Source of the DNA: Bdellovibrionales bacterium
GTDB taxonomy: Bacteria; Bdellovibrionota; UBA1018; CAIMNF01
Assembly: GCA_040380025.1 (NCBI GenBank)
Contig: JBEIJY010000002.1
Location: 64,001 to 128,000, forward strand
DNA length: 64,000 nt
Direction: 5' to 3'
Part shown: piece after piece, positions 16,812-37,217 of the stretch
Layout of the letters: every line of letters begins with the position of its first letter
Position numbering within the stretch: the first letter of the stretch is position 1
Notes under the pieces: generated by a model
What the model was told of the DNA's origin: nothing
Databases searched by the model: none
What the model saw: only the letters and a program-made list of their open reading frames with translations
Position numbers and translations under genes: made by a program

Positions 16812-16834
16812 TCATCACGCAGGGCCCTGTTTGA

Positions 16835-16864: not shown

Positions 16865-16905
16865 CAAGGCTTGCGGCCACATCATACCCTGAAAGTCTCG
16901 TTTGC

Positions 16906-17185: not shown

Positions 17186-17201
17186 ATGATATCTTGATCG
17201 A

Positions 17202-17564
17202 GTGAGGGTGTCGGCATTCATCTGGGATGAACACAACAGCGATAAGTGCCTATAGCACGGTTTGAGTTTGGCCCAAATAGAGGACTTTCTATTAAGCCAA
17301 CCAACCCTGATGGACGATGATCATCACTCAGGCCAAGAGCCGATATATATTGCTTTTGGTTATTTCGAAGACCGATTTTTATTCGTGGTTTTTACCTTGA
17401 GGGTGAAAGACAAAAAACTAAAGTTTCGGGTGATTAGTGCGAGATATGCGAGAGCAAAAGAAATAAAGAGGTTAGAAGCTTATGAAAAAGCAAAAAGCAC
17501 AAGTCAGAAAAAGAAAGACGGAAGGCAAAGACCCATTAGATCGAGATATGTCTTTCGTGTTTAA
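17202..17564 (+). pseudogene. BrnT family toxin with in-frame amber stop
   Basis: From GTG 17202: MRVSAFIWDEHNSDKCL*HGLSLAQIEDF...FVVFT...RVISAR; TAG at 17253-17255 splits the FxWD and HG motifs. Confidence 0.8.
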
Positions 17565-17751
17565 CCATCCAGAAAAGTGGAAGCAATTCAGCGAGCTTTT
17601 TCAGTTCGCACCGAAAGACAAGACGATCACTCTGAGAATGAGTGCAGATCTTTTAAATCGCTACAAAGAGTTAGCGGAAAAAATGGACACAAAATACCAG
17701 AAGCTTATTCGTGAGGCTTTGCTGGAGTACCTATTGAAAAAGGCTTCGTAG
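17482..17751 (+). CDS. BrnA/CopG-like ribbon-helix-helix antitoxin
   Basis: KTITLRMSADLL..YK..A.....KYQKLIREAL; overlaps toxin 3' end; low GC. Confidence 0.85.
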   Translation: MKKQKAQVRKRKTEGKDPLDRDMSFVFNHPEKWKQFSELFQFAPKDKTITLRMSADLLNRYKELAEKMDTKYQKLIREALLEYLLKKAS

Positions 17752-17792
17752 AGTTTCGATCATTCATTTTAATCGGAATGTCCTGCACAATT

Positions 17793-19355
17793 TCATCGTT
17801 GGGCGCCCGCAAGCATCCTGTCCTCGAATGCCGTAAGTGCCGCTTTTGCCCCTTCTCCCATGGCGATGATGATTTGTTTGAAAGGCGTCGTGGTCACGTC
17901 GCCTGCCGCATAAATTCCCGGAGCCGAGGTCCGGTTTTTCGCATCGATCACGATTTCACCGCTCGGGGCGAGGTCCAGGGTGCCTTTCAAGAATCCGGTG
18001 TTCGGAAGAAGCCCGATCTGAACAAAAATTCCGTCCACTGCGAAAACGCGCTCTTCGTTCGTGGTTCGATCCTCATATACAAGGGCATTGGCTTTGTGAC
18101 CGTCACCCTCGATTCGGCGGGATTTGGCGTTCGTGATGACAGTCGTATTCGGAAGGGATCTCAGTTTGTCGACCAAGACCAGGTCTGCCTTCAGATCGGC
18201 ATTGTATTCAAAAACCGTGACGTGGCTCGCGATGCCGGCAAGGTCGATCGCCGCCTCCACACCGGAATTTCCCCCGCCGATCACGGCCACGGCTCGTCCT
18301 TTGTAAAAGGGGCCATCACAATGAGGGCAGAATGCCACTCCCCGCCCTAAGTATTCTTTTTCGCCGGGAATTCCGAGCTCCCGCCATTTTGCTCCGCTCG
18401 CGATGATCACCGAGTGCGCGCGGATGGTCTCGCCGCTCTCGAGCAACACTTCCTTCCGCTCCTCTTTTGAGATCGATTTCACTTTGCGATGCTCAAAGAT
18501 CGATACGGGGTATCGCCCCAGGTGGCGGGATAGTTCCGCAGAGAGCCCCGGGCCTTCGGTGTAGGGGATCGAGATCATGTTCTCGATGCCGCGGGTTTCC
18601 TGAAGCTGTCCGCCGATGCGGTCTGCGACGATGGCGGTTTTCAGCCCCTTTCTAGCGCTGTAAATGGCGGCAGAAGAGCCTGCGGGCCCGCCGCCGATGA
18701 CCAGCACATCGAAGAATCCGAGATCCTTCGGCACCACGGTCTCGGGGGACTCGGATTTTCCGAAGTGCTTCTCAAGAACCGAGAGCAAATCGACCAACGA
18801 AATCCGGCCCGAGTGCAGAAGAGTATCGCCCGATAGAACCGACGGCACGCCTTGGATTCCCAATCGGGTGACTTCTTCTTGCCGGAGCCCGCCATCGATC
18901 ATCTCGTGATCGAAGTCGGAGTGGATCAGGGCGAACAGATTCAGCATCTGCACGACATCGGGGCAATTCTCGCAAGAAAGCGAAACAAAGGTGCGCAGAC
19001 GGATCGGACCCTTCAGAGCCTGAATTCGTGCCTGGATTGCTTCGTCGGGAAGCTTGCCTTTTTCGGCGGAATTCAGGACAGCGAGCACGAGCGAGGAAAA
19101 CTCGTGCCCTCCCGGGACGCCGCTGAAGCGGATTCCGGTTTTGGCGCCGTTCCTTACTATGCAAAAAGACGGAATGGCATGGGCCTCGCCCGATGAGGTA
19201 ACCGTGATCCGGGAGGAACATTCCGCAAGCCCGCGCAACATCGAAAGAAGCTCCTCTTGCGCGGGGTGTTGGCACTCGTCATGACGGAGCAAGATGTCCG
19301 TCGTAAGAGTGGCAAAAAGCGAAGCGAGTTCTGTTTTCAGTGCATCGTCCAACAT
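17793..19355 (-). CDS. ahpF: Alkyl hydroperoxide reductase subunit F
   Basis: PGGHEFSSLVLA, CENCPDVVQ, GGGPAG, CPHCDGP, GGGNSGVEAA. Confidence 0.97.
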   Translation of the reverse strand: MLDDALKTELASLFATLTTDILLRHDECQHPAQEELLSMLRGLAECSSRITVTSSGEAHAIPSFCIVRNGAKTGIRFSGVPGGHEFSSLVLAVLNSAEKGKLPDEAIQARIQALKGPIRLRTFVSLSCENCPDVVQMLNLFALIHSDFDHEMIDGGLRQEEVTRLGIQGVPSVLSGDTLLHSGRISLVDLLSVLEKHFGKSESPETVVPKDLGFFDVLVIGGGPAGSSAAIYSARKGLKTAIVADRIGGQLQETRGIENMISIPYTEGPGLSAELSRHLGRYPVSIFEHRKVKSISKEERKEVLLESGETIRAHSVIIASGAKWRELGIPGEKEYLGRGVAFCPHCDGPFYKGRAVAVIGGGNSGVEAAIDLAGIASHVTVFEYNADLKADLVLVDKLRSLPNTTVITNAKSRRIEGDGHKANALVYEDRTTNEERVFAVDGIFVQIGLLPNTGFLKGTLDLAPSGEIVIDAKNRTSAPGIYAAGDVTTTPFKQIIIAMGEGAKAALTAFEDRMLAGAQR

Positions 19356-19406
19356 GGGGTATTCCTCCCGGTCAAGATCCGGTTACTATGGCATCGAATC
19401 GGTAGG

Positions 19407-19973
19407 TCAGATTTTTCCGACGAGATTCAAGCCCGGCTTCAGGGTTTCTGCTCCAGGCTTCCATTTGGCGGGGCAGACTTCGCCCGGATGGGTCGAGACA
19501 AACTGCGCCGCTTGCACCTTGCGAAGCAGCTCGTCCGCATTGCGGCCGATTCCGTTGTCGTGCATCTCAGCGATCTTGATGAGTCCCTCGGGGTTCACCA
19601 CGAACGTGCCGCGGTAAGCGAGGCCTTCTTCTTCGATGTGCACACCGAAGGCGCGCGAGAGGTGCCCTGTCGGATCGGCAAGCATCGGGAAGCGGATCTT
19701 CTTGATCGTCTCGGAGGCATCATGCCAGGCCTTGTGCGAGAAGTGGGTGTCGGTGCTGACCGAGTAGACCTCGACGCCGAGTTTTTTGAATTCGGCGTAT
19801 TTGTCTGCCATGTCGCCCAGTTCGGTCGGACAGACAAAGGTGAAGTCAGCGGGGTAAAAGAAAAAGATCGACCACTTTCCGAGAAGGTCGTTCTTGGTGA
19901 CGGTTTTGAAGGCTCCTTCGTGAAATGCCTGCACTTTGAAGTCTTCGATTTGGGTATTGATGATGGTTTTCAT
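19407..19973 (-). CDS. ahpC: Alkyl hydroperoxide reductase subunit C
   Basis: FYPADFTFVCPTEL, GEVCPAKW; SD AAGGAG. Confidence 0.98.
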   Translation of the reverse strand: MKTIINTQIEDFKVQAFHEGAFKTVTKNDLLGKWSIFFFYPADFTFVCPTELGDMADKYAEFKKLGVEVYSVSTDTHFSHKAWHDASETIKKIRFPMLADPTGHLSRAFGVHIEEEGLAYRGTFVVNPEGLIKIAEMHDNGIGRNADELLRKVQAAQFVSTHPGEVCPAKWKPGAETLKPGLNLVGKI

Positions 19974-20012
19974 GGGTTTCTCCTTTGACTCAAGGATAGC
20001 TCCTCCCTCGGC

Positions 20013-20057
20013 ATAGATAAAATCGAATTATTCTCTAGAGTGATAGAGTAAATCTAA
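20013..20057. promoter_or_regulatory. OxyR/LysR-type binding boxes between ahpC and the glutaredoxin gene
   Basis: ATAG-N7-CGAA (20013) and ATAG-N7-CTAA (20043; TAGA-N5-TCTA palindrome, T-N11-A) resemble OxyR ATAG-N7-CTAT. Confidence 0.55.
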
Positions 20058-20117
20058 CAATGAGGGCGGTGGATGTCGAAAAGCCAATGCGGGTCGTTTT
20101 GTGGTACACTCCCGCCC

Positions 20118-20480
20118 ATGATGACCGGTATTCGCAAAGTTCTCGGATTCCTGATCCTTGCCCTCGATCGCATTTTCGTCCCCGGGGTCGAGGTAAGCCG
20201 CACTCCGCCGGAGCAGGAAGCGCTCGACCGGAGGCTTTCGGATTGGACCCTGTACCACCTTGAGGCTTGCCCTTTTTGCGTCAAAGTGCGTCGTCAGATG
20301 AAGCGCCGGGCGCTCACGATTCCCCTGAAAGAGATCAATGCCGATTCCCGGTTCCATGCCGAGCTCATGGCGGGCGGAAAGCTCGATCAGGTCCCGTGTT
20401 TGCGCTATCGCGACTCCGCAGGCGCCGAAAAATGGATGTACGAATCGAGCGACATCAACGCGTTTCTTGCAGGCCTTTGA
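20118..20480 (+). CDS. Glutaredoxin-like protein (CPFC)
   Basis: CPFCVKVRR, GG..QVPCL, WMYESSDI; TGnTACACT 7 nt before the ATG. Confidence 0.88.
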   Translation: MMTGIRKVLGFLILALDRIFVPGVEVSRTPPEQEALDRRLSDWTLYHLEACPFCVKVRRQMKRRALTIPLKEINADSRFHAELMAGGKLDQVPCLRYRDSAGAEKWMYESSDINAFLAGL

Positions 20481-22460: not shown

Positions 22461-23884
22461 ATTTTGACGAACTTGCGATTTCAGACAGCATGAAGGCACG
22501 CCTGAAAGAAATCGGCTTCACCGCGATGACTCCGATTCAGGAGGCGACGATTCCCGTGATTCTCGCGGGTCGCGATGTGATCGGCCAATCGAAGACGGGA
22601 AGCGGGAAGACCGCAGCCTTTGGGATACCGATTCTCGAAAAAATCGTCGTGCGCCAAGAAGGTCACCCTGAGCTTCAGGCCTTGATTCTGTGCCCGACCC
22701 GCGAGCTCTCGGCCCAGGTGGCTCGCGAGCTCCGGCGGCTCGGCACCAAAAAAATCGGTCTTCGGGTGATTGAGCTTGGGGGCGGAGTGCCGGGAGGCCC
22801 GCAGGCTCGCCAGCTCGAGAACGGAGTCCAGGTCGCGGTGGGCACCCCGGGGCGGGTGCTCGATCATCTCGAGCGAGGGCGGCTGGATCTGGCGAGTCTT
22901 CGGATGCTCGTGCTCGATGAGGCGGACCGGATGCTTGAGATGGGGTTTCAGGAAGAGATGGACGGGATTTTTTCGAGGCTTCCCGAATCGCGACAAACGC
23001 TGTTGTTTTCGGCGACTTTTCCGCGTGGAATCCTCGAGATGAGCGCGCGGTGCCAGAACGATGCAATTCCGCTCAAGCCCGAGGTGCCGTCGACGGACGA
23101 AGCGGAATCCTCCACGCAAGCGCTGATCCGGCAGGAGTTTCGGGTATTGGAGGGGGGAGAGGGGCAGGGGACCGATCGAACGGATGCGCTCTTGTCGCTT
23201 CTTTGGGAGACCGACCCCGAATCTGCGATCGTATTTTGCAACTTCAAGGCGGTCAGTTTTGAGCTGGTGCGCGATCTGAAAATGCTCGGCATCAGCGCCG
23301 ATTGTTTGAACGGGGATCTCGAGCAGAGGGAGCGGGACCTCGTGATGGCGCGATTCCGGAATCGAAGCCTTCGCATTCTGGTGGCCACCGATGTTGCGGC
23401 ACGGGGAATCGATGTGGCGGGGCTCGATTTGGTGGTGAACTATGAGCTTCCCCAGAAAACCGAAAATTACGTTCATCGCATCGGCCGCACCGGACGGGCC
23501 GGGAAGACCGGCCTTGCCGTCTCGCTCATTCTTCCGCGCGAGAAGGATCGCGCCCGCATGCTGGTCGGCCCGGCGTTTGGCGACGAAATCTTTGCGCCCG
23601 CCCGGACCGGCACTCCCGAAGGAGGGGCAAAACCCGCCCTTCAGGCCGGAATGGAGACACTGATCATTCTGGAAGGCCGGAAGAACAAGATGCGTCCCGG
23701 TGACATTTTAGGAGCCCTGACGGGCGAGGCCGGAGGCCTCTCGGGCGAGCAGGTGGGAAAGATCGAGATCCATGACTTTCATGCCTTCGTCGCGATCGAG
23801 AAGAAGTCCGCCGCCCGCGCGCTTGCGCGTTTGCAAGAGGGGCGAATCAAGGGTCGAAAGGTGCGGGTCGAGCGGCCGAGGTGA
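22457..23884 (+). CDS. dbpA: DEAD-box RNA helicase DbpA
   Basis: TGSGKT, PTREL, DEAD, SAT, HRIGRTGR and C-terminal RPGDILGAL...GKI RNA-binding domain; ATGA overlap at 22457. Confidence 0.9.
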   Translation: MNFDELAISDSMKARLKEIGFTAMTPIQEATIPVILAGRDVIGQSKTGSGKTAAFGIPILEKIVVRQEGHPELQALILCPTRELSAQVARELRRLGTKKIGLRVIELGGGVPGGPQARQLENGVQVAVGTPGRVLDHLERGRLDLASLRMLVLDEADRMLEMGFQEEMDGIFSRLPESRQTLLFSATFPRGILEMSARCQNDAIPLKPEVPSTDEAESSTQALIRQEFRVLEGGEGQGTDRTDALLSLLWETDPESAIVFCNFKAVSFELVRDLKMLGISADCLNGDLEQRERDLVMARFRNRSLRILVATDVAARGIDVAGLDLVVNYELPQKTENYVHRIGRTGRAGKTGLAVSLILPREKDRARMLVGPAFGDEIFAPARTGTPEGGAKPALQAGMETLIILEGRKNKMRPGDILGALTGEAGGLSGEQVGKIEIHDFHAFVAIEKKSAARALARLQEGRIKGRKVRVERPR

Positions 23885-24036
23885 ATCGTTCGAACATTCT
23901 GGTGCACAGCCGGGCCCGAAGAGCGTCAAGAAAATATCTTTTCTTTTTTCTTTTTTCCTTGACCTGACGTCTGTAAGCTTATGAAGTAATACCATTCAAC
24001 GCAGTAAAACTATTGTTTGTCAGGAAAGGGATTTTC

Positions 24037-24816
24037 ATGTCTCGGATTAATAAAATCGTCCTGTCTTTGTTTGCGTTTTCGACCTTGTTTTCGAGCCCCG
24101 CTTTCGCAGAATCATCAAAAATGCTCAATCAGAACGACTTCGTGGGAATCTCGTTTTGGATGATCTCGATGGCTCTCGTGGCGGCAACCGCCTTCTTCTT
24201 TCTCGAAACCCAGCGGGTTGCGGGAAAGTGGAAGACCTCTCTCACCGTTTCTGGTCTGGTGACCCTGGTCGCTGCGACTCACTACTTCTACATGCGTGAA
24301 GTATGGGTTGAGACGGCAAGCACCCCGACCGTATACCGGTACATTGACTGGCTCATCACGGTTCCCCTTCTGATCACCGAGTTCTATCTGATCCTTCGTG
24401 CGATCGGAAAGGCCTCTGCCGGAATCTTCTGGCGTCTGATCATCGGAACCACCGCGATGCTCGCCCTCGGATACATGGGCGAAGCCGGTTACATGGGCGT
24501 GTGGCCCGCATTCATCCTGAGCTGTCTTGCGTGGTTCTTCGTGATCTACGAAATCTACGCCGGAGAAGCAGGAAGAATCGGAACCACCCAGGCTCCTCCC
24601 GCAGTTCAATCAGCGTACCGCACCATGCGGACCATCGTGGTCTTCGGCTGGGCGGTTTATCCGATCGGATACTTCGTCGGATACCTCACCGGTGCAAACC
24701 CTGCCGACAGCATGGGAACTCTGAACATCGTTTACAACTTTGCTGACGTTGTGAACAAAATCGGCTTCGGCGTGATCATTTGGAACGTAGCCGTCACTTC
24801 GAGCGAATCGAACTGA
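24037..24816 (+). CDS. Proteorhodopsin (DTE proton pump, Leu105 green type) with signal peptide
   Basis: RYIDWLITVPLLITEF (D97/T101/L105/E108 in GPR numbering), H75 in HYFY, GWAVYP, YNFADVVNKIGFG with Schiff-base Lys; 7 TM; purine-rich SD AGGAAAGGG. Confidence 0.97.
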   Translation: MSRINKIVLSLFAFSTLFSSPAFAESSKMLNQNDFVGISFWMISMALVAATAFFFLETQRVAGKWKTSLTVSGLVTLVAATHYFYMREVWVETASTPTVYRYIDWLITVPLLITEFYLILRAIGKASAGIFWRLIIGTTAMLALGYMGEAGYMGVWPAFILSCLAWFFVIYEIYAGEAGRIGTTQAPPAVQSAYRTMRTIVVFGWAVYPIGYFVGYLTGANPADSMGTLNIVYNFADVVNKIGFGVIIWNVAVTSSESN

Positions 24817-24833
24817 TTCGAACAAAAATAAGG

Positions 24834-24868
24834 AAAAGCCCCGCGACCCTGTCGTGGGGCTTTTTTTT
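24834..24868 (+). terminator. Intrinsic terminator after the rhodopsin gene
   Basis: AAAAGCCCCGCGAC-cct-GTCGTGGGGC followed by T8. Confidence 0.85.
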
Positions 24869-24874
24869 GACCTC

Positions 24875-26866
24875 ATGAAACACTTTGATGTCGTCATTGC
24901 GGGCGGCGGTCTTTCCGGAATGATCTGCGCCGACACCCTCGCGAATTCTCCGAACACCGAACTCCGCATCGCCATTGTGGATCCCGATCCCGCGAGCCTG
25001 AAATCGAGGACTTTCGCGAGCTGGACAAAAAAATCCGAGCCTCCTCATCGGTATTCCGGCCTGGTTTCGAAGCGATGGGATCGGTTCCGGGTCACCGACC
25101 CCCGCGGGAATCCGATCGAAAGATCATTCGAAGACTATTGCTACGAGTACGTATCGGGAGAGTCGCTTTTTGAGCATTGGAATCAAAAAATCAATGCTGA
25201 TCCCCGCTTTCATCGCATCGATCAATCCGTCCGGACCATCACCGAGGAGCGAAATCCCGACACTGGACAGATTCGTGCGGTGGTGGAGCTCAAGGACGGA
25301 CGCATCCTTCATGCTGATCGGGTGTTGAGCTCTCCCGCGCGCCATCCGGGAGCGGTTCAACAAAGCTTTTTCGGGCTCGAGATCGAAACGACCGAGGAGT
25401 TCTTCGATCCGGATGTGGTGGATCTCATGGATTTTCGCTTCGAGCAAAAAGGCGAGGTCCGGTTTGTGTATCGCTTGCCCCTGAGCAAGACCCGCGCACT
25501 GGTCGAGTTCACGGTCTTTTCGGCAAGCGATGTTTCCAGAACAGACTGCGAGGCGGGACTGCAAGAGTATCTTTCTCGATTGCTGGGGCTCCCTTCGTAT
25601 TCCGTGCTCCGGACCGAATCCGGGATCATTCCGATGGGCGTGGACCCGGAGCCTTTTTTCCCCCCTTCGTTTCGAAGCCAGGTGATGGAATCGATCGGAG
25701 GAGCGGGAGGAAGAATCAAGGCCAGCACGGGATACTCCTTTCGGCGGAATCTGGAGCACCCGGAAGCGGGGACGAGCGCGGGATCTGCGCGCTTCCGGTT
25801 CCGGATGTATGATGTGCTACTGCTCGGGATGATTCGACAAAACGGCGGCGTGGTCGCCGGCGTCTTTGCCCGATTGTTCGCACGAAACCGACCGGGAGCG
25901 GTGTTTTCGTTTCTGGACGAAAAATCGCGACCCTTGGACGAGGCCAGGATTTTCTGGTCCCTGCCTTGGACGCCTTTTTTGCGACAGTTGTTGCTGGAGT
26001 ATCCTTTTCTTTTTGCCGCAATGGCAACTCTTTTGCTTCAGCATGCGATCGGAGGATTCGCCGGCTGGATCGTGCCCCTTTCGGGTCTGCTCATTACGGG
26101 CGTTCCCCATGGGAGTGTCGATCATTTGCTGAATCCAGCCCAAAAAAACAGACTTTCCTTCACGCTTCGCTATCTCATAGGAATGGCGCTTTATCTTCTC
26201 GCCTGGTGGTTTGCGCCTCTTCTGACCTTCTTGTTCTTTCTTTGGCAGTCGGCCGATCACTTCGGCGAGGCATATTGGATTCGCGCGATCCGCGCGTCCA
26301 AGAATGATCCCCTGGTTCGCGGACTGGTCTGGCTCTGGGGCCTGTTCGCGGCCGGATTCAGTGTTTTGTTTCATTGGGAAGAGGCGATGCCGATCGTGAT
26401 CGGCATCGTGGGCGATCAGGAGTGGATCCGAACACTCCCGGACTCGCGGGCTGGGTTTCTCTCGCTCGTTCTTTTTGGAATGGCCTTCATTGCGGCCCAT
26501 TTGCTCGATCGCTATGAGCGCAGGTCCAGGGGGCGGCCCCCGAGCGGTGCTCCGGCCACGCTTCTTCTCGGGGCTGTGCTCATGATGCTTCCTCTTTTAC
26601 CGGGCTTTCTTTGTTTCTTTGCGTTCTGGCATGGCTGGGATTCGATCCGGGCCCAGCGGGAGCGCATGGGGTGGAGCGTGGGCGATTACGTTCGGAAGGC
26701 GTTGCCACTCTCGGTGGTTTCATGGGCCGGAATCTTTGGCTTGATTTGGTGGTTCGACGGGCTGATTTGGAAGGTCTTTTTTATCGCGATCGGCGCTCTC
26801 ACCGCGGCCCACGTGCCCGCAATGAAGCGATTTTTACTTTCACGACCAACAGAAGAGCGGGGATGA
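24875..26866 (+). CDS. Fused lycopene beta-cyclase (CrtY) / beta-carotene 15,15'-dioxygenase (Blh/Brp)
   Basis: N-half: IAGGGLSG, LMDFR, RFVYRLP, LVEFT, ESGIIPM, GGRIKASTGYSF. C-half: multi-TM with GVPHGSVDH, SADHFG, FWHG, LTAAH (four Blh His motifs). One continuous frame. Confidence 0.9.
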   Translation: MKHFDVVIAGGGLSGMICADTLANSPNTELRIAIVDPDPASLKSRTFASWTKKSEPPHRYSGLVSKRWDRFRVTDPRGNPIERSFEDYCYEYVSGESLFEHWNQKINADPRFHRIDQSVRTITEERNPDTGQIRAVVELKDGRILHADRVLSSPARHPGAVQQSFFGLEIETTEEFFDPDVVDLMDFRFEQKGEVRFVYRLPLSKTRALVEFTVFSASDVSRTDCEAGLQEYLSRLLGLPSYSVLRTESGIIPMGVDPEPFFPPSFRSQVMESIGGAGGRIKASTGYSFRRNLEHPEAGTSAGSARFRFRMYDVLLLGMIRQNGGVVAGVFARLFARNRPGAVFSFLDEKSRPLDEARIFWSLPWTPFLRQLLLEYPFLFAAMATLLLQHAIGGFAGWIVPLSGLLITGVPHGSVDHLLNPAQKNRLSFTLRYLIGMALYLLAWWFAPLLTFLFFLWQSADHFGEAYWIRAIRASKNDPLVRGLVWLWGLFAAGFSVLFHWEEAMPIVIGIVGDQEWIRTLPDSRAGFLSLVLFGMAFIAAHLLDRYERRSRGRPPSGAPATLLLGAVLMMLPLLPGFLCFFAFWHGWDSIRAQRERMGWSVGDYVRKALPLSVVSWAGIFGLIWWFDGLIWKVFFIAIGALTAAHVPAMKRFLLSRPTEERG

Positions 26867-27689
26867 AGAGCAGGATTTTTCGAGTGGTCGGGACCACGGT
26901 CCGGTTCCGGAATGCTGTTTTCGGGTCACTCGCCGCGGTCTTCAGCAATTCGTGACCGATTTGCTGATAGAGTTTTCCGGCGAAGGCGATCGCCACGGCC
27001 GTCCGAAGGGGCAAAAATGCAATCCCCCGAAAGCCCTCGTCATACCAACGGTCAGCAAGACGCAACAACGACCGCACCGCCGGGAGCGCTCGCTCAGGTT
27101 CGTGTGCCAGCTCGCGTGCCAAGTCGTGAGCCCCTAGCCCCGGCATGAGATCAGCCGGAATGTACACTCGGCCGATCCGGGCATCGGCTTGGATGTCGCG
27201 CGCAATGTTCGTGAGCTGCATTGCCTTTCCGAGCGCGGCGGCCGGAGCCGGCGCCCGGATCGGATCGGCACCGATCACGGGGCACATCATGAGTCCCACG
27301 ACTCCGGCCACACGAAAGCAGTACTGTTCGAGTTCCGAAACGGTCGCATAGCGCGTGTCTTCGAGATCCATCCGGAACCCCGCGAGGAATTCCGCCCGGT
27401 GCGCGGGATCGACCCAGGCGGGAGGGCTGAAAGGAGAGTTTGCGTCGGTAGCGCACTCGATTTCTTGAAGCCCGCGCAGCGCAGCGGAGCGGTCAGGGGC
27501 CTCGTCGATTCGATCATCACAGTTTCGGCACCACTGATACAGCCGAAGTGCATCGTGGCGCGTGGAGCGCGGCAAAAAAAATGAAGCGAGGGCAAAGCTT
27601 TTCGATCCTTGCCGGATCACCTCCTCGGGCGAAATCGCGGGGTGAGGTCTAGGATGCGGTCGAGGGTGCTCGTCTGGCGCGGCCGTCAT
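26799..27689 (-). CDS. crtB: Phytoene synthase
   Basis: GSKSFALAS, LYQWCRNCDD, YCFRVAGVVG, LGKAMQLTNIARDI..D...GRVYIP. Confidence 0.95.
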   Translation of the reverse strand: MTAAPDEHPRPHPRPHPAISPEEVIRQGSKSFALASFFLPRSTRHDALRLYQWCRNCDDRIDEAPDRSAALRGLQEIECATDANSPFSPPAWVDPAHRAEFLAGFRMDLEDTRYATVSELEQYCFRVAGVVGLMMCPVIGADPIRAPAPAAALGKAMQLTNIARDIQADARIGRVYIPADLMPGLGAHDLARELAHEPERALPAVRSLLRLADRWYDEGFRGIAFLPLRTAVAIAFAGKLYQQIGHELLKTAASDPKTAFRNRTVVPTTRKILLFIPALLLVVKVKIASLRARGPR

Positions 27690-29213
27690 TCAGGCCTGCG
27701 CCTCGAATCGGGCCGATCGAATGTCGTCCAAGAGCAGATTCGCGGTCGCTTTTGCGGAATTCACGACTCCCGGAACCCCTGCCCCGGGATGCGTGCCGGC
27801 GCCGACAAAATAGAGACCCTTCAGGTCGGGGTCGCGATTTCGGGTGCGGAACGCAGCACTTTGCCAAAGGACGGGTTCGGCCGAGAAGGCCGCACCCAGA
27901 TGTGAGTTCAGCTCGTCCCGGAAATCCTCAGGCGTGAAGATGCGCTGGGTGACGATGTGCTTTCGCAAATCGGGAGCGTAGCGGGTCTCGATGTACTCGA
28001 GGATTTTCTCGGCATAGGCGGGGCCCTCTTTCTTCCAGTCGATCTTGAGGTTTCCGAGATGGGGAACGGGCGAAAGAACATAAAACGCCTCACATCCCTC
28101 GGGGGCCATCGACGGGTCCGAGCGGGTGGGGGCATGAAGATAGAGCGAGAAATCATCGGGGATTTCGTCATTCTTGCTGAAGATTTTTTTCAGGAGCTCG
28201 CGGTAGGATTTTCCGAACAGAATATTGTGATGGGCGAGTTTCGGATATTGCTTGCTTGTCCCGAAGTAAATCAAGAAGAGGGACATGCTCTGGGATTGCC
28301 GGAGCGCTTTCTGGCGCGAGGGGCGGACTTGTTCGGAGTTTCGAAGAAGGTGCGAGTAACTGTGAACCACATCGGCGTTCGTGACGACGATGTCGCAGGG
28401 CCAGGTCCCCTGATGCGTGCGAACCGCCGAAACGCTCGAGCCATGGGTCAAAATCTCATCGACGGGAGTCGAGAGCTCGATTCTTCCCCCAAGTTCCTGA
28501 AACAACCGCACAAGAGCGTTCACGAGTGCGCCGGTTCCTCCGCGCGGAAAGAACACGCCCCAGTTTCGTTCGAGGTAATGAATCAGGGTGTAAATCGAGG
28601 AGGTCTTGAAGGGGTCGCCGCCCACTAGCAACGAATGAAAACTGAATGCCTGGCGAAGCTCACGGTCTTCGATGTATTGCGAGACCGTCTTGAAGACCGA
28701 GCGGTGAGCCTTCAGATTCACAAGCTGGGGTGCAACCCGCACCATGCTCCAGAGATTCAAAAACGGAACATGGGCGAGCTTGGTGTAGCCCTCATCGAAG
28801 ACATTCTTCGAGTAGTTCAGGAACCGCTCATAGCCTTCGACGTCGCGCGGGGACTTCGACTGGATCTGCTCGAAGGTCGTCTTCGGATCGTTCGAGTAGT
28901 CGAAGACATAGCCGTTCTCCCAAAAGAGCCGATAAAACGGGCTCACGGGCATGAGCTCGACGTAGTCTTCCATCTTCCGGCCCGCCTCTTCGAACAACTC
29001 CTTCAGGCACTCAGGCGCGGTGATCACAGTGGGACCAGCATCGAAAACAAAGCCCTTGTCCCGGTACACATAGGCCCTGCCGCCAGGCTGGTCTCGCTTT
29101 TCGAAGAGCACCACTTCGTGTCCGGCCGTTTGCAGGCGCACGGCGGCGGCCAGTCCCGCAAAGCCACTGCCGATGACGGCGATTCTTTTTTTGTTCCTGA
29201 TTTTTTCAGCCAT
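27690..29213 (-). CDS. crtI: Phytoene desaturase
   Basis: IGSGFAGLAAA, FDAGPTVIT, FHSLLVGG, SLYLHAP, VGAGTHPGAGVPGV. Confidence 0.97.
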   Translation of the reverse strand: MAEKIRNKKRIAVIGSGFAGLAAAVRLQTAGHEVVLFEKRDQPGGRAYVYRDKGFVFDAGPTVITAPECLKELFEEAGRKMEDYVELMPVSPFYRLFWENGYVFDYSNDPKTTFEQIQSKSPRDVEGYERFLNYSKNVFDEGYTKLAHVPFLNLWSMVRVAPQLVNLKAHRSVFKTVSQYIEDRELRQAFSFHSLLVGGDPFKTSSIYTLIHYLERNWGVFFPRGGTGALVNALVRLFQELGGRIELSTPVDEILTHGSSVSAVRTHQGTWPCDIVVTNADVVHSYSHLLRNSEQVRPSRQKALRQSQSMSLFLIYFGTSKQYPKLAHHNILFGKSYRELLKKIFSKNDEIPDDFSLYLHAPTRSDPSMAPEGCEAFYVLSPVPHLGNLKIDWKKEGPAYAEKILEYIETRYAPDLRKHIVTQRIFTPEDFRDELNSHLGAAFSAEPVLWQSAAFRTRNRDPDLKGLYFVGAGTHPGAGVPGVVNSAKATANLLLDDIRSARFEAQA

Positions 29214-30303
29214 GCGAATTCATCACCTTTCTTGCCATTTCTTCGATCGGGTTCAGAGCCGGGTTCCCGGCGAATCGATCTTTGAGTCCTCTCAGACACG
29301 AATCCATCGCCTCGCAGGCTTGCGCAAGCGCCACCGCGATCACCGGATGGGTCGTCCGCGGATCGTCTTCGCCTTTTTGGATGGTTCGGGACATCAGGGC
29401 CTGGAATTTTGTGAACTCATGGGGTTCGAGCGTTGTCGCCGCAACCGCCCACACCCAGGACGGACGAATGAAGGGCCCTCTCGGGGTGTCCGATTTGCCC
29501 GATTCGCGAAACTCGGCCAGGTCATTGAACATTTGCAACAAGACCCCGAACGACTGACCGAAATCGGCAATCGTGCGACGAAGGTCCGAATGGGCAGAGG
29601 CGGCGACGGCTCCGAATTCGGCGCACATCCTCATGAGGGCGCCGGTTTTCAGGCCCAGCGTTGCCATCGAGATTGGAGTGATTTTCGCTTGGGGCAGAAA
29701 GGTCATGTCATGAGCGAGATCGAGCGACTGACCATAGTGAGCTTGAATCATGGCGTGATGATGAACCCGATAGAGCTCGAGCTCGATTTCAGCCGGGATT
29801 TTTTGAGACCGGATCAGGTCGGTCGCGCGGTAGTAGAGCCAGTTGCCGGCATTGATGGCAGAGGGCATGCCGATCAGGGCGTGCAGGGCAGGGCCGCCTC
29901 TTCGAGTCATGCTTGAGTCCTGAATGTCATCGATGATCAGGGATCCGGCATGGATCGTCTCGACCATGGCACCGAGAGAAGAGAGCAAGTCCTCGTGCTC
30001 CTTGTCTCGGACCGCTGAACCCGAGGCGAGATCAAACCCGATCGAGACCAACTGAGCCCGGACCTGTTTGCTCGGCCGGTCCAAGTATTCGTTCAGGGGG
30101 TCGAGCATGGGTGCGAGCAAAGGGGGAAGAGCTTCTTTTGGCGCGACTCCCAGCGGGAGCCATTCCCGCAAAAAAGCCAAGTCGTCCGGGCCCGGGAGGA
30201 TCATCTGCGACAAAGTACGCGGTTGGTCCGACCTCGCGGGCGGGGATGTTCTGAATGGTTCCTGGATTTCTCTTCGATTCGTCAGTTCACGAAACTCGTT
30301 CAC
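29206..30303 (-). CDS. crtE: Polyprenyl (probably geranylgeranyl) diphosphate synthase
   Basis: KQVR, HAGSLIIDDIQD, RRGGP, GQSLDL, LKTGAL; first in the crtE-crtI-crtB run; start position uncertain. Confidence 0.8.
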   Translation of the reverse strand: MNEFRELTNRREIQEPFRTSPPARSDQPRTLSQMILPGPDDLAFLREWLPLGVAPKEALPPLLAPMLDPLNEYLDRPSKQVRAQLVSIGFDLASGSAVRDKEHEDLLSSLGAMVETIHAGSLIIDDIQDSSMTRRGGPALHALIGMPSAINAGNWLYYRATDLIRSQKIPAEIELELYRVHHHAMIQAHYGQSLDLAHDMTFLPQAKITPISMATLGLKTGALMRMCAEFGAVAASAHSDLRRTIADFGQSFGVLLQMFNDLAEFRESGKSDTPRGPFIRPSWVWAVAATTLEPHEFTKFQALMSRTIQKGEDDPRTTHPVIAVALAQACEAMDSCLRGLKDRFAGNPALNPIEEMARKVMNSHG

Positions 30304-30477: not shown

Positions 30478-31308
30478 ATGAAGTGTTTCACGGCCGTGGT
30501 TGCATTTGTCCTTTCTGTTCCCCTCTTCGCCATCGCAGATGAGCGATGTTCCGATCTTCTGACCAAGAAAACCCACCAGGAGGCGATTGCCGAGGGGATT
30601 CTTGCGAGCTATGCCCCTTATCAGTACCGCCCGTTCCGACTCGAACCGCTTAGCCAGAATCAGAATGCCATCGTATTTTTGGGATCGGAGATTGATCTTC
30701 CAAAACGGAAGTTCATTTTGAAGGTCATGCCGCTCGGCGAGGCATTGAGCGACTTTTATGCTCTTCGCTTGATTCGAGGCATCCAGAAAGAGATTCGAAT
30801 CCCGATTTCCGTGGTCGATTCGGTGGTTCTCACGCCTCGACTCGGAACTCTCGCGTCAGAGACCTTGGTGCTCCAGAAAAACTCCCTCGCCCGGGGAAGA
30901 ACTTTGTTTGAGATTCTTGCCGACGAACAGGTCGCAACCGATCGAAAGAGTTACCTTCGGAATTACTATATGGCCTGGATCCATCAAATGGCGGGAGCTT
31001 TGAAGAAGAAGCGGTTTTTGGTCGAAACGAAGCGTCTGGAGTCCAACTTTTATCGAAACCAACACCGCTTCATCGAGACCCATCCGAATGCGATCGACGA
31101 TCAGCCGATTGCGCTCAGTGCGAGCCGTTTGTGGGATGAAGAGATGAGGGGCAAGGAGATGGAGCCTTTGTTCCAGTATCTCGACCGCGCATCCCGTGGT
31201 GTGCTCGAGAACCTGAGCAGTAGCGGGAACGGGATATCCATCATCCTCAAGACCGACAACATCATGGTCGATGATTCCGACCACATGGTGTTGTTTGATC
31301 CATTTTAA
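30478..31308 (+). CDS. Secreted hypothetical protein with remote kinase-like motifs
   Basis: Signal peptide; FILKV, GRTL, LKTDNIMVD, LFDPF. Confidence 0.6.
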   Translation: MKCFTAVVAFVLSVPLFAIADERCSDLLTKKTHQEAIAEGILASYAPYQYRPFRLEPLSQNQNAIVFLGSEIDLPKRKFILKVMPLGEALSDFYALRLIRGIQKEIRIPISVVDSVVLTPRLGTLASETLVLQKNSLARGRTLFEILADEQVATDRKSYLRNYYMAWIHQMAGALKKKRFLVETKRLESNFYRNQHRFIETHPNAIDDQPIALSASRLWDEEMRGKEMEPLFQYLDRASRGVLENLSSSGNGISIILKTDNIMVDDSDHMVLFDPF

Positions 31309-32759
31309 TTTTTTGGTTTCGGATTCTTTTTTTCGATCAGGGGGGCAGTCAACTTTACGCGAAGTCCGCGATCGGGATTCCCGATGGGTAGCACCAGATA
31401 CATGCTGGTGCCCGATCGAGGAAATTCCAATCCGGCCGCAATTTCGCCAGAAATCCCCTGTTTTTTTGCCCACTCCCGGAGAATCGATACATTGACAAAG
31501 CCCCGCACGGGGGTCTTTTCGGAGCTTCCGGCGAAATTTGTGCCGAAACTCGCCCCGAAACTCGCTTCACTCGAAAGCTCTTGCCCCGCTTCGGCGTTGT
31601 TTCGGATTCGAATCGGGGTCACCGACGCGTTCGCGACCAACCCGCCCTTGTGAAGTTGATACGCTCCCGTTGCCTCATTGGTTTGCCCGAGCCGTGTGAT
31701 CAATCCATAGGTGTGCCGGGCTCCTCCGGTCGAATTGGCTGATTCCGAGACTTGGACGATCAGCTGGCCGTAAGGATCGGAGCCGCGGGTCTCGTACCCC
31801 AAAAACAGGTTCTGGTTTTTCTTCTTCCATGCGACCCCGGTCAACGCCTGCTCCCGGAATGGCCTGGCGATCAATACATATTGAAGTTTTCCACCGACCC
31901 GTCGGAGCGGATTTTGACCGGAAATCCGGAAATCCAGGTAGCTGCCTCCCGGATCGGTCGCATCCACGCGGGAGCGGAGCGAGAGATCAGAATCGCCAAT
32001 CGATGCCCCCGAGGGATTCCGCCAGTGTTGTTTGTAGTCAAAACCGACCGGAATCGTGACCGGTCCCAAGGAGTAAAATCGCGGTTTGAATTTGGATTTC
32101 TTTCCCTTTTCCATCGGAATGGCCGAAAATCGGCCTGCTTCCACCGCAGATGGAACCAAGGCTGTCCATCGGCTCCCGGTGACCCAAAGATCGGGATTCG
32201 CAGGCGAAGGTTCAAGGGCAATTACCGCAAGAGGACTCGACTGCGAAGACAGTTCGAGAATCTCCGGCAAATCGGAGTCCCCCGGGGCCTGCGACGGCCG
32301 CCAAGAACAGGCATCGACGTTTTCTCCGAAAGCGGCCTTCGCCCACTCGCCATCGAGAGAGGGCGGAAAAGCCCCAATCGCGGCCTGAAGGGGTTTCAGA
32401 TTCTCTGCCACCGGAGAAACTGCTCCGGGCGGAGGTTCTTCAAAAACCGGGATTAGCTCGTGGTCGATTGCTCTGTCCGTGAAGTTGATGAACGAGGGGG
32501 TGAATCCGAGCCCCATTTGCTTTTGCATCTCGAGCGGATCCCCGAATGCGCTGGCAAGTTCGGGCAGACGTAACCATCCCTCTGGCGTGGCCAAATCCGG
32601 AAACAGTCCCGGCTGCATCACATAGTGCCCGAGAAAAAAAGCATTCCTCTCCCAATCCGAATCTTGTGCCTGCACGCGCGCCCCGATGCACCAAAAAATT
32701 GGCATCAAGATCAAGAACCGAACAGGAATCCGTATCGCCCGAAAAAACAGCGCACTCAT
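31305..32759 (-). CDS. Secreted hypothetical protein, beta-rich C-terminus
   Basis: 484-aa ORF filling the gap between neighbours; signal-like N-terminus (VQA/QD). Confidence 0.65.
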   Translation of the reverse strand: MSALFFRAIRIPVRFLILMPIFWCIGARVQAQDSDWERNAFFLGHYVMQPGLFPDLATPEGWLRLPELASAFGDPLEMQKQMGLGFTPSFINFTDRAIDHELIPVFEEPPPGAVSPVAENLKPLQAAIGAFPPSLDGEWAKAAFGENVDACSWRPSQAPGDSDLPEILELSSQSSPLAVIALEPSPANPDLWVTGSRWTALVPSAVEAGRFSAIPMEKGKKSKFKPRFYSLGPVTIPVGFDYKQHWRNPSGASIGDSDLSLRSRVDATDPGGSYLDFRISGQNPLRRVGGKLQYVLIARPFREQALTGVAWKKKNQNLFLGYETRGSDPYGQLIVQVSESANSTGGARHTYGLITRLGQTNEATGAYQLHKGGLVANASVTPIRIRNNAEAGQELSSEASFGASFGTNFAGSSEKTPVRGFVNVSILREWAKKQGISGEIAAGLEFPRSGTSMYLVLPIGNPDRGLRVKLTAPLIEKKNPKPKN

Positions 32760-34212: not shown

Positions 34213-35613
34213 ATGATCGAACCCCGAGTGGTGCAGGTTCCGGGAGCAGAAATCCGTTTTTTCGGCGCGGCCGGCGAGGTCACGGGCAGCAAAGCGATTC
34301 TTCGTGCGCATCGAAAGTCGATTCTGATCGATTGCGGATTGTTCCAGGGCGAAAAGACGAGCAAACAGATGAATTGGACCCCGATGCCGGAGGAGGTTTC
34401 TTCGGTCGATGCCGTCTTGATCACGCATGCGCACCTGGATCACTGCGGGTATCTTCCGAGGCTCGTGAAAGGCGGATACTCGGGTCCAGTGTACTGTTCG
34501 CCCGGGACCCGCGACTTGATGAAGATCATTCTTCTGGATTCGGCCCATCTTCAAGAAGAAGACGCTGAGTATGCGAACCGGACCGGATACTCCCGCCACA
34601 AGCCGGCCGAACCCTTGTACACGGTCCGCGATGCCGAACGGGCCCTCTCGCTCGTCAAGACCATGCCGATGGGGGTGTGGCAGACGGTGGTTCCCGGGGT
34701 CGAAGTCGAGCTCACGCGCGCGGGGCATATCATCGGTTCTTCGGTGGCGCGCTTCCGCATCAAGGCTGCGGGGAAGGACTCTCTCGTTACCTTCAGCGGG
34801 GACCTCGGCCATGGCCGGCAGCTCACCATTCTTGCTCCTGATCCTCTCCCCGATACCGATGTGCTGGTTCTGGAGAGCACCTATGGAGATCGTCTTCATG
34901 CGCGGGATCTCCCCGAGGATGCTCTGGAGCGAATCCTGAATCAGATTCAGCGCTCCGGCGGAGTCCTTGTGATTCCCTCGTTCGCCGTGGGGCGCGCGCA
35001 GGAAGTGTTGCATCTCATTCGAGTTCTCGAGGATCGCGGGCGGGTCAAGCCGGTTCCGGTCGTATTGGACTCACCGATGGCCGAGGACGCGACCGCAATC
35101 TACCTGCAACACCCCGAGGACCATCCGCCCGGTCTTGATTTTGAAAAAAAGGCACGCAATTTCTTTCCGAAGCGCTTTGAGTGGGTTCGGTCGGCCCAGG
35201 AGTCACGCCAGTTGTCGGATCGCAAGGGGCCGCTGGTGATTCTTTCTGCTTCGGGTATGCTCCAAGGTGGGCGTGTATTGCATCATCTTCGGACGCGACT
35301 CGTGGATTCAAAGAATGTGGTTCTATTTGTGGGATATCAGGCCGAGGGAACCAAGGGCTGGTTTTTGAAGAATCGAGGAAAATCCGAGGGCGCGCTCCGG
35401 ATCTTCCACGAACCGGTACCAGTGAATGCGCAAATTGAGTCGATCGAGTCGCTCTCGGCCCACGCCGATCAGAAGGATCTTTTGACGTGGATCAATTCGG
35501 CCGCAAAAAAACCGAACTTGATCATTTTGAATCATGGCTCCGGCCTTTCGGCTAATGCTCTCGCGGGTCGGATTGATCGCGAGCTCGGGATCCGCACCCA
35601 TCCGCTCACGTGA
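34213..35613 (+). CDS. MBL-fold / beta-CASP RNA-processing metallo-hydrolase
   Basis: GAAGEVTGS, DCGLFQG, THAHLDH, AGHIIGS, ESTYG, FAVGRAQE, GYQAEGT, SAHAD. Confidence 0.93.
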   Translation: MIEPRVVQVPGAEIRFFGAAGEVTGSKAILRAHRKSILIDCGLFQGEKTSKQMNWTPMPEEVSSVDAVLITHAHLDHCGYLPRLVKGGYSGPVYCSPGTRDLMKIILLDSAHLQEEDAEYANRTGYSRHKPAEPLYTVRDAERALSLVKTMPMGVWQTVVPGVEVELTRAGHIIGSSVARFRIKAAGKDSLVTFSGDLGHGRQLTILAPDPLPDTDVLVLESTYGDRLHARDLPEDALERILNQIQRSGGVLVIPSFAVGRAQEVLHLIRVLEDRGRVKPVPVVLDSPMAEDATAIYLQHPEDHPPGLDFEKKARNFFPKRFEWVRSAQESRQLSDRKGPLVILSASGMLQGGRVLHHLRTRLVDSKNVVLFVGYQAEGTKGWFLKNRGKSEGALRIFHEPVPVNAQIESIESLSAHADQKDLLTWINSAAKKPNLIILNHGSGLSANALAGRIDRELGIRTHPLT

Positions 35614-35674
35614 GTCATGGATTGATCTTTGTGGGATGCTGGAATCCACGATTCTTTTGAGATATCGTGGGAGT

Positions 35675-36286
35675 ATGAAAATCAAAGTCCTTCTTTTGGC
35701 AAGCTTGGTTGGCTCGGTCTCGACTCTGGCCGCAGCAGCGGTTCCGGAATCGATTTATGACTTTCGTGTGAATCGACTCGGCGGAGTTCCGGCATCGCTC
35801 TCGGAGTACAAAGGAAAAGTCCTTTTGATCGTGAACACCGCATCGAAATGCGGATACACTCCGCAGTATCAGGGCCTTCAGACGATTTATCAGCGATACA
35901 AGACTCGCGGCTTCGAGGTCCTCGGATTTCCTTCGAATGACTTCGGCTCGCAGGAGCCGGGCAATGCGGGTGAGATCAAAAAGTTCTGCGAGACCCGGTA
36001 CAAGGTCTCCTTCCCGATGTTCGAAAAAGGCGTGGTGTCCGGAAGCCACAAGCAACCCCTGTACGCTTGGCTCGTGGCCAATGAGCCGAAAGCGAAATTC
36101 GGCCAGAGCGAAGTGGGCTGGAACTTCGAGAAATTCCTGGTCTCCAAAGAAGGCGCGGTGCTTGCCCGCTTTCGTTCGAGTGTCACCCCCGAGAGCCCCG
36201 AGGTGATCCAGGCGATCGAATCGGCGCTCGAAAAAAAAAAGGAATCTGAACATGTCGGACCCAAAAGCACCGCTCCATCTCAGTGA
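35675..36286 (+). CDS. Glutathione peroxidase family protein with signal peptide
   Basis: [33 protein letters not shown]. Confidence 0.93.
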
Positions 36287-37217
36287 CGAGCAGGTCCGGG
36301 TCACCCGGATGTGCGCGACCGAAAACCCCTTCCGGAATGCCTATTGGGACAATCACGATGCGGGAATTTATGTCGACATCGTGAATGGAAAGCCCTTGTT
36401 CAGCTCGAAGGACAAATTCGACTCCGGCACCGGTTGGCCGAGCTTCACCAGGCCCGTCGACGAGAAGGTCCTTGCGCTGAAGGATGACCGGAGCCACGGG
36501 ATGATTCGCACCGAGGTGCGCTCGAAAGATTCGGACTCTCATCTGGGCCACGTGTTTGATGACGGCCCGGGCCCGACCCGGAAGCGCTTTTGCATCAATT
36601 CGGCATCGCTCCGGTTCGTGAGCGTGCTGAACCTCGAAAAAGAGGGCTACGGAAAATACCGCGATTTGTTTTCGGACGAGGTAGTGCGGGACGAAAAGAA
36701 AAAGCGTGCCGATCGCGTTCAATCGGGTGCGTACCAGACCGCAATCCTTGCGGGCGGATGTTTTTGGGGGGTTCAGGATCTGATCCGGAAGCTTCAGGGC
36801 GTGGTCGACACCGAGGTGGGGTACACCGGCGGGAGCACGGCGAATCCGATGTATGAAGAGGTGAAAAAAGGCACCACCGGACATGCCGAGGCCGTGAGGG
36901 TTGTGTTTGATCCGAAGCAGATCCCGTTTGCGAGGCTTTTGGATTTGTTTTTCACCCTGCATGATCCGACGACCTCGAACCGTCAGGGCAATGACATCGG
37001 CTCGCAATACCGGTCGGCGATCTTCTTCTCTTCGCCCGCCCAAAAGGAAGAGTCGCTCAAAAAAATCAAGGAATGGAATGCCTCGGGCAAGTGGAAGAAG
37101 CCCATTGTGACCGAAGTCCTTCCGGCGATGCCGTTTTATCCGGCGGAGGGATATCACCAGGATTACCTGGTCAAGAACCCGAACGGATACACCTGTCATT
37201 ACTTCAGGGAGTTCTGA
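36252..37217 (+). CDS. Bifunctional methionine sulfoxide reductase MsrB-MsrA
   Basis: Msr[23 protein letters not shown]. Msr[29 protein letters not shown]. Confidence 0.95.

Follow-up and report, generated by a model that had tools for sequence, protein, structure and literature searches.

How has a complete retinal pathway, together with an opsin, come to be packed into five genes in a genome of the Bdellovibrionota, and what would the cell gain from it? The locus in question lies at positions 24037 to 30303 of a 64,000-nucleotide stretch (hereafter the window) from a Bdellovibrionales bacterium (GenBank assembly GCA_040380025.1, contig JBEIJY010000002.1, positions 64,001 to 128,000 of the forward strand). 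It includes an opsin gene and genes for all steps from prenyl diphosphates to retinal. The last two enzymes, the lycopene cyclase CrtY and the beta-carotene-cleaving Blh, are fused in a single open reading frame (ORF). Judging from the sequence, we consider it probable that the locus specifies a self-sufficient green-light proton pump with a complete retinal pathway in a likely predatory bacterium of this phylum. A linker-less CrtY-Blh enzyme and a cassette built by Bdellovibrionota, moving between lineages and changing its opsin, appear to be undescribed: no report of a bacterial CrtY-Blh fusion or of this cassette was found in the literature within reach, which did not include subscription papers and several supplements.

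Other aspects of the locus are of kinds already known and are less surprising: the phylum has rhodopsin phototrophs, rhodopsin clusters can be rearranged and horizontally transferred, and carotenoid enzymes can be fused. The proteobacterial photosystem operon has the order PR-crtE-crtI-crtB-crtY-blh(-idi) (PR, proteorhodopsin; PMC10284914) and an XR-crtEIBY-brp arrangement is also described (PMC7701988). The latter source includes, in its Table 1 of phototrophy-gene carriers, metagenome-assembled genomes of three Bdellovibrio and two other Oligoflexia. A few opsins have been attributed to freshwater Bdellovibrionota in the available part of 10.1101/2022.08.01.502354, while that of 10.1101/2020.08.06.239558 does not link opsins with this phylum. 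Finally, pumping has been measured for the xanthorhodopsin Kin4B8 (PDB 7ytb/8i2z), which is described as coming from an uncultured member of the Bdellovibrionota (10.1101/2022.08.24.505090; also PMC13093654). The initial annotation of the window had presented light-driven pumping as an acquisition for this lineage. A pump is likely from the sequence, but as rhodopsin pumps are already on record for the phylum, rhodopsin phototrophy is not in itself new.

The CrtY-Blh fusion

The fusion gene (24875..26866, plus strand) is one uninterrupted ORF of 663 amino acids (aa) from its ATG, or 670 aa if an upstream GTG is used. Its cyclase domain matches PF05834 with 161 bits (cut-off 23.4) and is assignable only as a PF05834 cyclase of the Bacteroidota type. 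The Blh domain scores over the cut-offs of both TIGR03753 (122 against 95 bits) and PF15461 (107 against 28 bits). We aligned 44 fusions, the full-length members of a set of 53 from which partial chains and three distant Bacteroidota-type chains were excluded. The GxGxxG motif (G10, G12, G15), E211, which we take to be the catalytic Glu of the cyclase, and four His residues (H412, H462, H586 and H646) are invariant in all of them, and an STGYS motif is invariant or nearly so. The order of the motifs, rather than an alignment with Q4PNI0 itself, matches the four His residues to His21/78/188/256. This is the set proposed for the iron plane of Blh, with His192 outside it, in a recent report (10.64898/2026.08.06.743266), and the invariant residues of the fusions fit this revised iron site independently.

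The two domains are joined without a linker. The first Blh helix starts within about 13 residues after the last cyclase motif, LPWxPF, and this helix is also the N-terminus of stand-alone Blh proteins in the same clade. In an AlphaFold model of the whole chain (pLDDT 90.7, pTM 0.88; 92–95 over residues 361–390, which span the junction), the last cyclase helix continues into the first Blh helix and the Blh part has about ten long helices. The whole-chain model is confident and the two domains are therefore predicted to be held in a fixed orientation. A fold search with this model matched the cyclase half only to flavoproteins (geranylgeranyl-reductase-like) and was uninformative on the Blh half. 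Channelling of beta-carotene between the cyclase and Blh domains is plausible in view of the model.

Natural fusions of carotenoid enzymes include the CrtI-CrtB-CrtYc/d-Blh protein of Thecamonas trahens (PMC10016063) and verrucomicrobial CrtIB, together with CrtBY and CrtIBY (PMC10284914). Like the window protein, that of Thecamonas places consecutive retinal-pathway enzymes in one chain, with Blh last after the cyclase. It is, however, a four-domain eukaryotic protein with a small membrane CrtYc/d, whereas the window protein is bacterial and has an FAD-type CrtY (PF05834) directly fused to Blh.

Both domains are found in one chain in 53 of the 77 matches of a protein-cluster search that scored only lengths of 364–1161 and the best 7998 candidates. 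Of 336 confirmed genome loci, 80 were kept, and 28 of these have the fusion as a single ORF. A second fusion group occurs in Bacteroidota-type genomes (7/80 loci: L069, L070, L071, L072, L076, L092 and L093), away from opsins, and a rhodopsin is located elsewhere in four of the five genomes of this group tested. Where measurable, the junction is 65–73 residues long in the Bdellovibrionota fusions versus 76–77 in those of the Bacteroidota. Separate origins of the two groups were considered but are not shown, a single clade not being rejected by the approximately unbiased test (CrtY p-AU 0.17; Blh p-AU 0.33). Three records of the second group are entitled "uncultured Rhizobium". Two have a Bacteroidota-like RpoB, so that the titles look wrong; the third has no RpoB match. 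A divergent 703-aa CrtY-Blh fusion (31/28% to that of the host) faces a divergent PR at L038:7614-9725 in genome G048, which additionally keeps a native crtY-crtE-crtI-crtB operon.

The opsin and its expression

The opsin gene (24037..24816, plus strand) encodes 259 aa with a match of 152 bits to PF01036. This match, and alignment of K241 to K231 of green proteorhodopsin (GPR), indicate a type-1 rhodopsin fold with its retinal Lys. The alignment gives the full set of pump residues, H82, R101, D104, T108, L112, E115, D237 and K241, whose GPR counterparts are H75, R94, D97, T101, L105, E108, D227 and K231. D104, T108 and E115 make up a DTE motif and L112 is at the green-tuning position (GPR Leu105). 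The best solved relative is a green proteorhodopsin (8cqc, E 5.6e-89). By its residues, therefore, the opsin is a GPR-type green proteorhodopsin and likely a light-driven outward proton pump. The N-terminus resembles a signal peptide by eye and a purine-rich ribosome site is located upstream. Beyond its own group, the nearest named relatives are labelled Acidobacteria and Acidimicrobiia (74–77%).

Phe159, within a WPAF motif, occupies the antenna-window position, and the Gly of xanthorhodopsin position 156 is not present. A bulky residue at this position blocks the antenna, according to 10.1101/2022.08.24.505090, and the opsin would therefore function without a carotenoid antenna. In contrast, Kin4B8 is described in the same source as fenestrated and using xanthophyll antennas.

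The opsin and fusion genes are separated by an intrinsic-terminator-like hairpin followed by a U-tract (24829..24869, plus strand). RNA folding gives 19 pairs and −27.7 kcal/mol (z −5.7), and none of 200 shuffled sequences was as stable. The ATG of the fusion lies 5 nt past the hairpin, with no evident ribosome site. Similar hairpins were found, without a shuffle comparison, in all eight related spacers folded (three from opsin-to-fusion loci and five from Bacteroidota PR-crtY-blh loci). Among 1422 long ORFs of the genome, the WWC codon fraction places the opsin at the 95th percentile, close to rpoB (94th), and the fusion at the 9th. Together, hairpin and codon bias suggest much pump and little enzyme, the latter made by read-through, and the terminator likely keeps enzyme levels low. 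No clear conserved regulatory motif was seen across five aligned upstream regions.

The facing crtE-crtI-crtB genes

The other three genes are on the minus strand and face the opsin and the fusion. The phytoene synthase gene crtB (26799..27689) encodes 296 aa (PF00494, 176 bits) and overlaps the fusion tail-to-tail (3′/3′) by 68 bp. It is abutted by crtI (27690..29213), which encodes a Pantoea-type phytoene desaturase of 507 aa (TIGR02734, 666 bits; best solved match 4dgk, E 1.4e-188) and itself overlaps crtE by 8 bp. The crtE gene (29206..30303) specifies a polyprenyl synthase, likely for geranylgeranyl diphosphate (GGPP), of at most 365 aa (PF00348, 116 bits). Its start is uncertain and a 300-aa form is present in the protein collection. 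It has the motifs DDIQD and NDLAE and is of the family that occurs in Bdellovibrionota carotenoid operons.

All five genes named in the initial annotation are thus intact, on the strands and at the positions it gave, and its view that they form a complete set from prenyl diphosphate to retinal, with the opsin, in a layout other than the canonical co-directional operon, is borne out. What it wrote as crtY-blh on the plus strand is in fact one fused gene, and it is for this reason that five genes suffice. The annotation stressed neither this fusion nor the change of opsin among relatives, which are the most distinctive features of the locus. It had also remarked on a missing idi. Neither idi nor a xanthophyll gene is present within the module, but this is no gap in the pathway since a type-2 idi adjoins the HMG-CoA reductase gene in a mevalonate cluster on contig C3; Dxr has no match in the host genome.

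Origin and probable transfer of the cassette

Non-phototrophic genomes of the host order carry a native crtY-crtE-crtI-crtB operon or close variants of it, with crtY beside crtI in 13 of 15 regions. In trees, for which seven duplicate named loci were dropped, CrtE, CrtI and CrtB of the window group with this native operon and not with Bacteroidota enzymes. The relatives G018 and G056 have clusters in the canonical PR-operon order; these form clades separate from that of the window, and their CrtE and CrtI fall outside the native group. The cyclase of the fusion is found among Bacteroidota/Acidobacteriota-type cyclases (97/88), apart from native CrtY. The module had been proposed to be a mosaic with a Bacteroidota-like cyclase and a divergent CrtE. 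The per-gene trees bear out the mosaic and the Bacteroidota type of the cyclase, but CrtE is not foreign: it is native, since it groups with the carotenoid operon of the host order. On this evidence, crtE, crtI and crtB stem from the carotenoid operon native to the lineage, the domains of the fusion are of Bacteroidota type and the opsin is of GPR type.

Loci in the Bacteroidota (Chitinophagaceae and Spirosomataceae; L083, L085, L086, L091, L104, L105, L111 and L114–L116) have the same order, opsin, hairpin, crtY and blh, and the CrtY and Blh domains of the fusion group with Bacteroidota-type proteins. In those loci, however, crtY and blh have an ORF each, abutting or overlapping, the opsin has a Gly at the antenna window and Met105, and crtE, crtI and crtB are not adjacent. 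With the proteobacterial PR operon, on the other hand, the window shares its enzyme set and chemistry, the GPR-type DTE opsin and a Pantoea-type CrtI. That operon is a single co-directional run with separate crtY and blh; the window has two facing units with crtY and blh fused, these being of Bacteroidota type, its crtE, crtI and crtB are from a Bdellovibrionota carotenoid operon and its idi is elsewhere.

The cassette enzymes form one clade that extends over three RpoB lineages of the Bdellovibrionota (CrtY 100/100; Blh 100/100; CrtI 100/99). A host-order clade of CrtI, as expected from vertical descent, was rejected (p-AU 0.00046) in a test with 27 of the 48 CrtI rows, Bacteroidota and near-duplicate rows being left out. 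The CrtI of the host is 77–80% identical to that of the Oligoflexales group, for an RpoB identity of 59–60%, and 77% identical to that of the same-genus genome G002, for an RpoB identity of 92%. GC content of the module is 0.54–0.62 and that at third codon positions (GC3) 0.65–0.71, which is ordinary for the genome (GC3 0.68 ± 0.07). A recent gain from a compositionally different donor was ruled out, as GC3 and the codon adaptation index (CAI) are ordinary.

Apparent opsin exchange among relatives

Among 21 named loci with a fusion of this clade, the opsin is of xanthorhodopsin type in 13, of GPR type in three and of Bacteroidota type in three; none was seen in the other two, which are on short contigs. 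The opsin of L045 is most similar to 3ddl (xanthorhodopsin-type) and the L036-type opsin to 9jov (a Bacteroidota-type PR). Both kinds of PR occur within the host genus, GPR-type in the host (G000) and G002, and Bacteroidota-type in G011, G014, G016 and G001. An opsin is present in six of 17 genomes of this genus, 12 of 61 relatives and 37 of 401 genomes sampled from the phylum (about 9%; this last count includes two weak matches with stops). Within the genus, CrtI matches are confined to opsin-bearing genomes (5/17).

In L045, where the opsin is a xanthorhodopsin with Gly at the antenna window, four genes are located between crtB and the fusion (L045:4579-8004). They are desaturase/ketolase-like, carotenoid biosynthesis PF04240 (CruF-like), acyltransferase and GT2 genes. 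L046–L053 have a similar gap, the gene contents having been read in L045 only. This Oligoflexales insert is likely a pathway for a salinixanthin-type keto-carotenoid antenna. The cassette of the window is a stripped form: it has no antenna window, and no CrtZ was recognised among the three PF04116 matches of the host.

Genome G001, of the same genus, has a Bacteroidota-type PR with a stand-alone blh (L040:6415-8205); at E 1e-60, CrtI has no match in it. The genome is 96% complete and the locus is on a 9-kb contig. Use of outside carotene or mis-binning may account for this.

The host

The host genome has 2.35 Mb and is 98% complete. In an RpoB tree it falls in an order-level clade of 45 rows (SH 100), with 78–82% identity to nested genomes labelled Bdellovibrionales, Oligoflexia and Bacteriovoracaceae. 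This clade is apart from genomes labelled Bdellovibrio/Pseudobdellovibrionaceae (RpoB 62–64%) and Oligoflexales (54–61%). The proposal that the host is Bdellovibrionota-like is therefore supported, by this one marker, and the placement would fit the uncultured class UBA1018 (proposed Bdellonasia) as it is described in PMC13200544.

Several features make a predatory host likely. Locus L213 (contig C24, 28000-39223) is of the Tad type and comprises two FHA-TPR proteins, four ORFs of 173–244 aa without annotation, RcpC/CpaB, a secretin, a T2SSE ATPase and T2SSF/TadB. Tad genes combined with FHA proteins are features of the Tad-like Kil predation system (PMC8460266). The genome also has eight flagellins with short frames of 282–310 aa and, at 98% completeness, no match to TrpB. 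Its mevalonate route, with the type-2 idi and no Dxr match, is a further predator-like trait. Two DacB-like genes were not counted as evidence for predation because 8 of 14 control genomes match too.

Alternative explanations

A number of observations weigh against a self-sufficient pump with an active fusion in a predatory host. The cyclase domain is far under the NCBIfam cut-offs (41.5 against 215.2 bits for TIGR01789 and 89.2 against 209.5 bits for TIGR01790), and CrtB and CrtE pass Pfam but score under their NCBIfam equivalog cut-offs. The position of His192, included in an older four-His model of Blh, is Ser590 in the fusion; it is not His in Bacteroidota Blh either. The fusion is dispensable: only six of the 34 Blh-matching genomes in the phylum sample have a long fused frame, and stand-alone Blh nests within the fusion clade. 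At L067:5443-6762, a 439-aa ORF has an intact-looking Blh preceded by what is left of a cyclase, which is shortened and whose GxGxxG is degenerate; this would be a fusion on its way to a stand-alone Blh. By genome-wide CAI the opsin does not stand out (30th and 43rd percentile), and a consensus scan found no sigma-70 promoter. Eleven of the 17 genomes of the genus lack an opsin, including two of the three nearest RpoB neighbours of the host, G010 (87% complete) and G013 (97%). Donors are unevenly sampled in the gene trees because the loci were fetched with the fusion profile, and the RpoB tree, made with FastTree, has 62 rows with a Bacteroidota-only outgroup and no Myxococcota or Desulfobacterota rows. 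The ATPase of the Tad locus is a ParA/MinD-CpaF fusion whose N-terminus is of CbiA/ParA type; because it is without the N-terminal FHA domain of Myxococcus KilF, the locus is Kil-like only. In addition, the ATP synthase c subunit (L212:1369-1704, contig C6) has the Q, ES and Y residues with Leu in place of the Thr after ES, which we take to be a feature of sodium-binding c rings. Without this Thr, the coupling ion may be either H+ or Na+.

Some of these observations could be accommodated if the pump worked with a half-active fusion, the cyclase domain decaying or acting as a spacer and Blh cleaving beta-carotene from prey or the environment. We regard this as quite unlikely. The low NCBIfam scores, the loss of the cyclase with retention of Blh in L067, the opsin and blh of G001 without CrtI and the many Bdellovibrionota loci with only an opsin-blh pair are all compatible with it, but the conservation of GxGxxG, E211 and STGYS across the 44 fusions and the confident model over the cyclase domain are not what a decaying domain would give. 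Moreover, the fusion is the only CrtY match in the host, and the intact, co-inherited crtE, crtI and crtB would then end at lycopene. The module might alternatively be functional yet near-neutral, an accessory often gained and lost that serves photoprotection or the balance of pH or ions and does not power hunting. This would suit its patchy distribution in the genus and phylum, the flanks, which differ in every carrier examined, and the uncertain coupling ion of the ATP synthase. Peroxiredoxin-, glutathione peroxidase- and methionine sulfoxide reductase (Msr)-like ORFs, recognised by eye within 7 kb on both sides, point the same way; such oxidative-stress neighbours are, however, not beside the module in the five carrier loci compared. 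Photoprotection by carotene is also difficult to reconcile with a fusion that would pull it into retinal and with the lack of a CrtZ-like gene among the PF04116 matches, and the WWC bias of the opsin is of the highly expressed type. On balance this explanation is unlikely.

An artefact of assembly or binning, in which a chimeric contig or a frameshift joined crtY and blh, is very improbable and already largely refuted. The genome is metagenome-assembled, and a chimera at the module edges had been named at the outset as a possibility to check. In run X1, a contig of 4375 nt covers 22937–27311 at a depth of 29.4 and another of 11301 nt extends from 27282 to beyond 35000 at a depth of 32, neither with differing letters, and together they bridge both module edges at even depth. 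X1 is the sole run with the whole stretch and may be its source; it thus checks the assembly only and its support is not independent. No RNA run was listed among those with this DNA, and run X2 gave only a small share of the stretch, in scattered short pieces. G002, a different species of the same genus, has an identical five-gene layout (locus L033; 44–89% protein identity) between different flanks, the fusion recurs in 53 sequence clusters and the composition is native. As far as the X1 contigs, composition and the layout of G002 allow, no chimera is seen.

Proposed mechanism and implications

A self-sufficient pump supplied by an active fusion, the reading we prefer, would operate as follows. 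Isopentenyl and dimethylallyl diphosphates (IPP/DMAPP) would be provided by the mevalonate pathway and the type-2 Idi. Judging by family membership, CrtE would convert them to GGPP, CrtB to phytoene and CrtI to lycopene. Lycopene would then be turned into beta-carotene by the FAD cyclase domain, which its fused Blh partner would keep at the membrane, and Blh would cleave the beta-carotene with O2 at its four-His iron site to give two retinals. Retinal would be bound at K241, and D104 and E115 would carry protons outward under green light without a carotenoid antenna. A terminated transcript of its own would yield the opsin in large amounts and read-through would yield a little of the fusion, while crtE-crtI-crtB would act as a facing, translationally coupled unit. 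The proton gradient might pay for flagellar swimming and maintenance in a non-growing, prey-seeking phase, the least supported step of the scheme.

The trees are consistent with a history in which crtE, crtI and crtB were recruited from the native operon, whose crtY would have been replaced by a Bacteroidota-type crtY-blh pair that was later fused. Horizontal transfer would then have carried the cassette among three or more Bdellovibrionota lineages, and the opsin beside it would have been exchanged between GPR-type, Bacteroidota-type and xanthorhodopsin pumps. A bolder version is possible, although we find it doubtful as a whole. Here the fusion would be a rigid retinal synthase of two enzymes, with beta-carotene passing directly from the cyclase to the cavity of Blh at the surface of the membrane. 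It would also be the core of a cassette built in, and traded among, predatory Bdellovibrionota, with a swappable pump (a plain green PR, an antenna PR, or a xanthorhodopsin with its own keto-carotenoid genes), and this cassette would power hunting from one prey encounter to the next.

An active fusion would be a one-gene lycopene-to-retinal converter, of use for the production of retinal and retinoids. According to 10.64898/2026.08.06.743266 there is no solved structure of Blh; an active fusion could supply, in its soluble cyclase domain, a built-in fiducial for cryo-electron microscopy of Blh. Close relatives differ in the presence and type of pump, and the locus makes it testable whether light energy carries bacterial predators through a non-growing, prey-seeking phase.

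Flanking regions and other features of the window

Synteny around the module is not kept, and no clean insertion (empty) site could therefore be identified among five same-genus regions compared. Orthologues of the DbpA and HD-protein genes were located in the genus; in the five regions, only an ABC-F gene adjoins that for DbpA (2/5). No tRNA gene adjoins the module, the nearest being tRNA-Ser (16906–16995). Two flanking ORFs, of 276 aa (30478–31308, plus strand) and 484 aa (31305–32759, minus strand), have no Pfam or NCBIfam match and are not beside the module in the relatives compared. For the 484-aa ORF, Atlas neighbours are only weak, outer-membrane-barrel-like and all below 0.9.

The oxidative-stress ORFs within 7 kb, as identified by eye, are AhpF-, AhpC- and glutaredoxin-like at 17793–20480, and glutathione-peroxidase- and MsrB-MsrA-like at 35534–37217. 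An Msr gene adjoins the opsin of G048. Just past tRNA-Ser, GC content decreases to 0.51 in a small island (16001–19000) with an ORF (17262–17564) that by eye resembles the BrnT-type toxin of a toxin-antitoxin pair. Further away, a 570-aa aromatic amino acid hydroxylase of the long PRK14056 type is encoded at 14083–15795 (minus strand). A 726-aa ORF at 61440–63620 (plus strand) matches LpxB over residues 32–398, below cut-off, and LpxK over residues 439–712, and may join these consecutive enzymes of lipid A synthesis in one chain.

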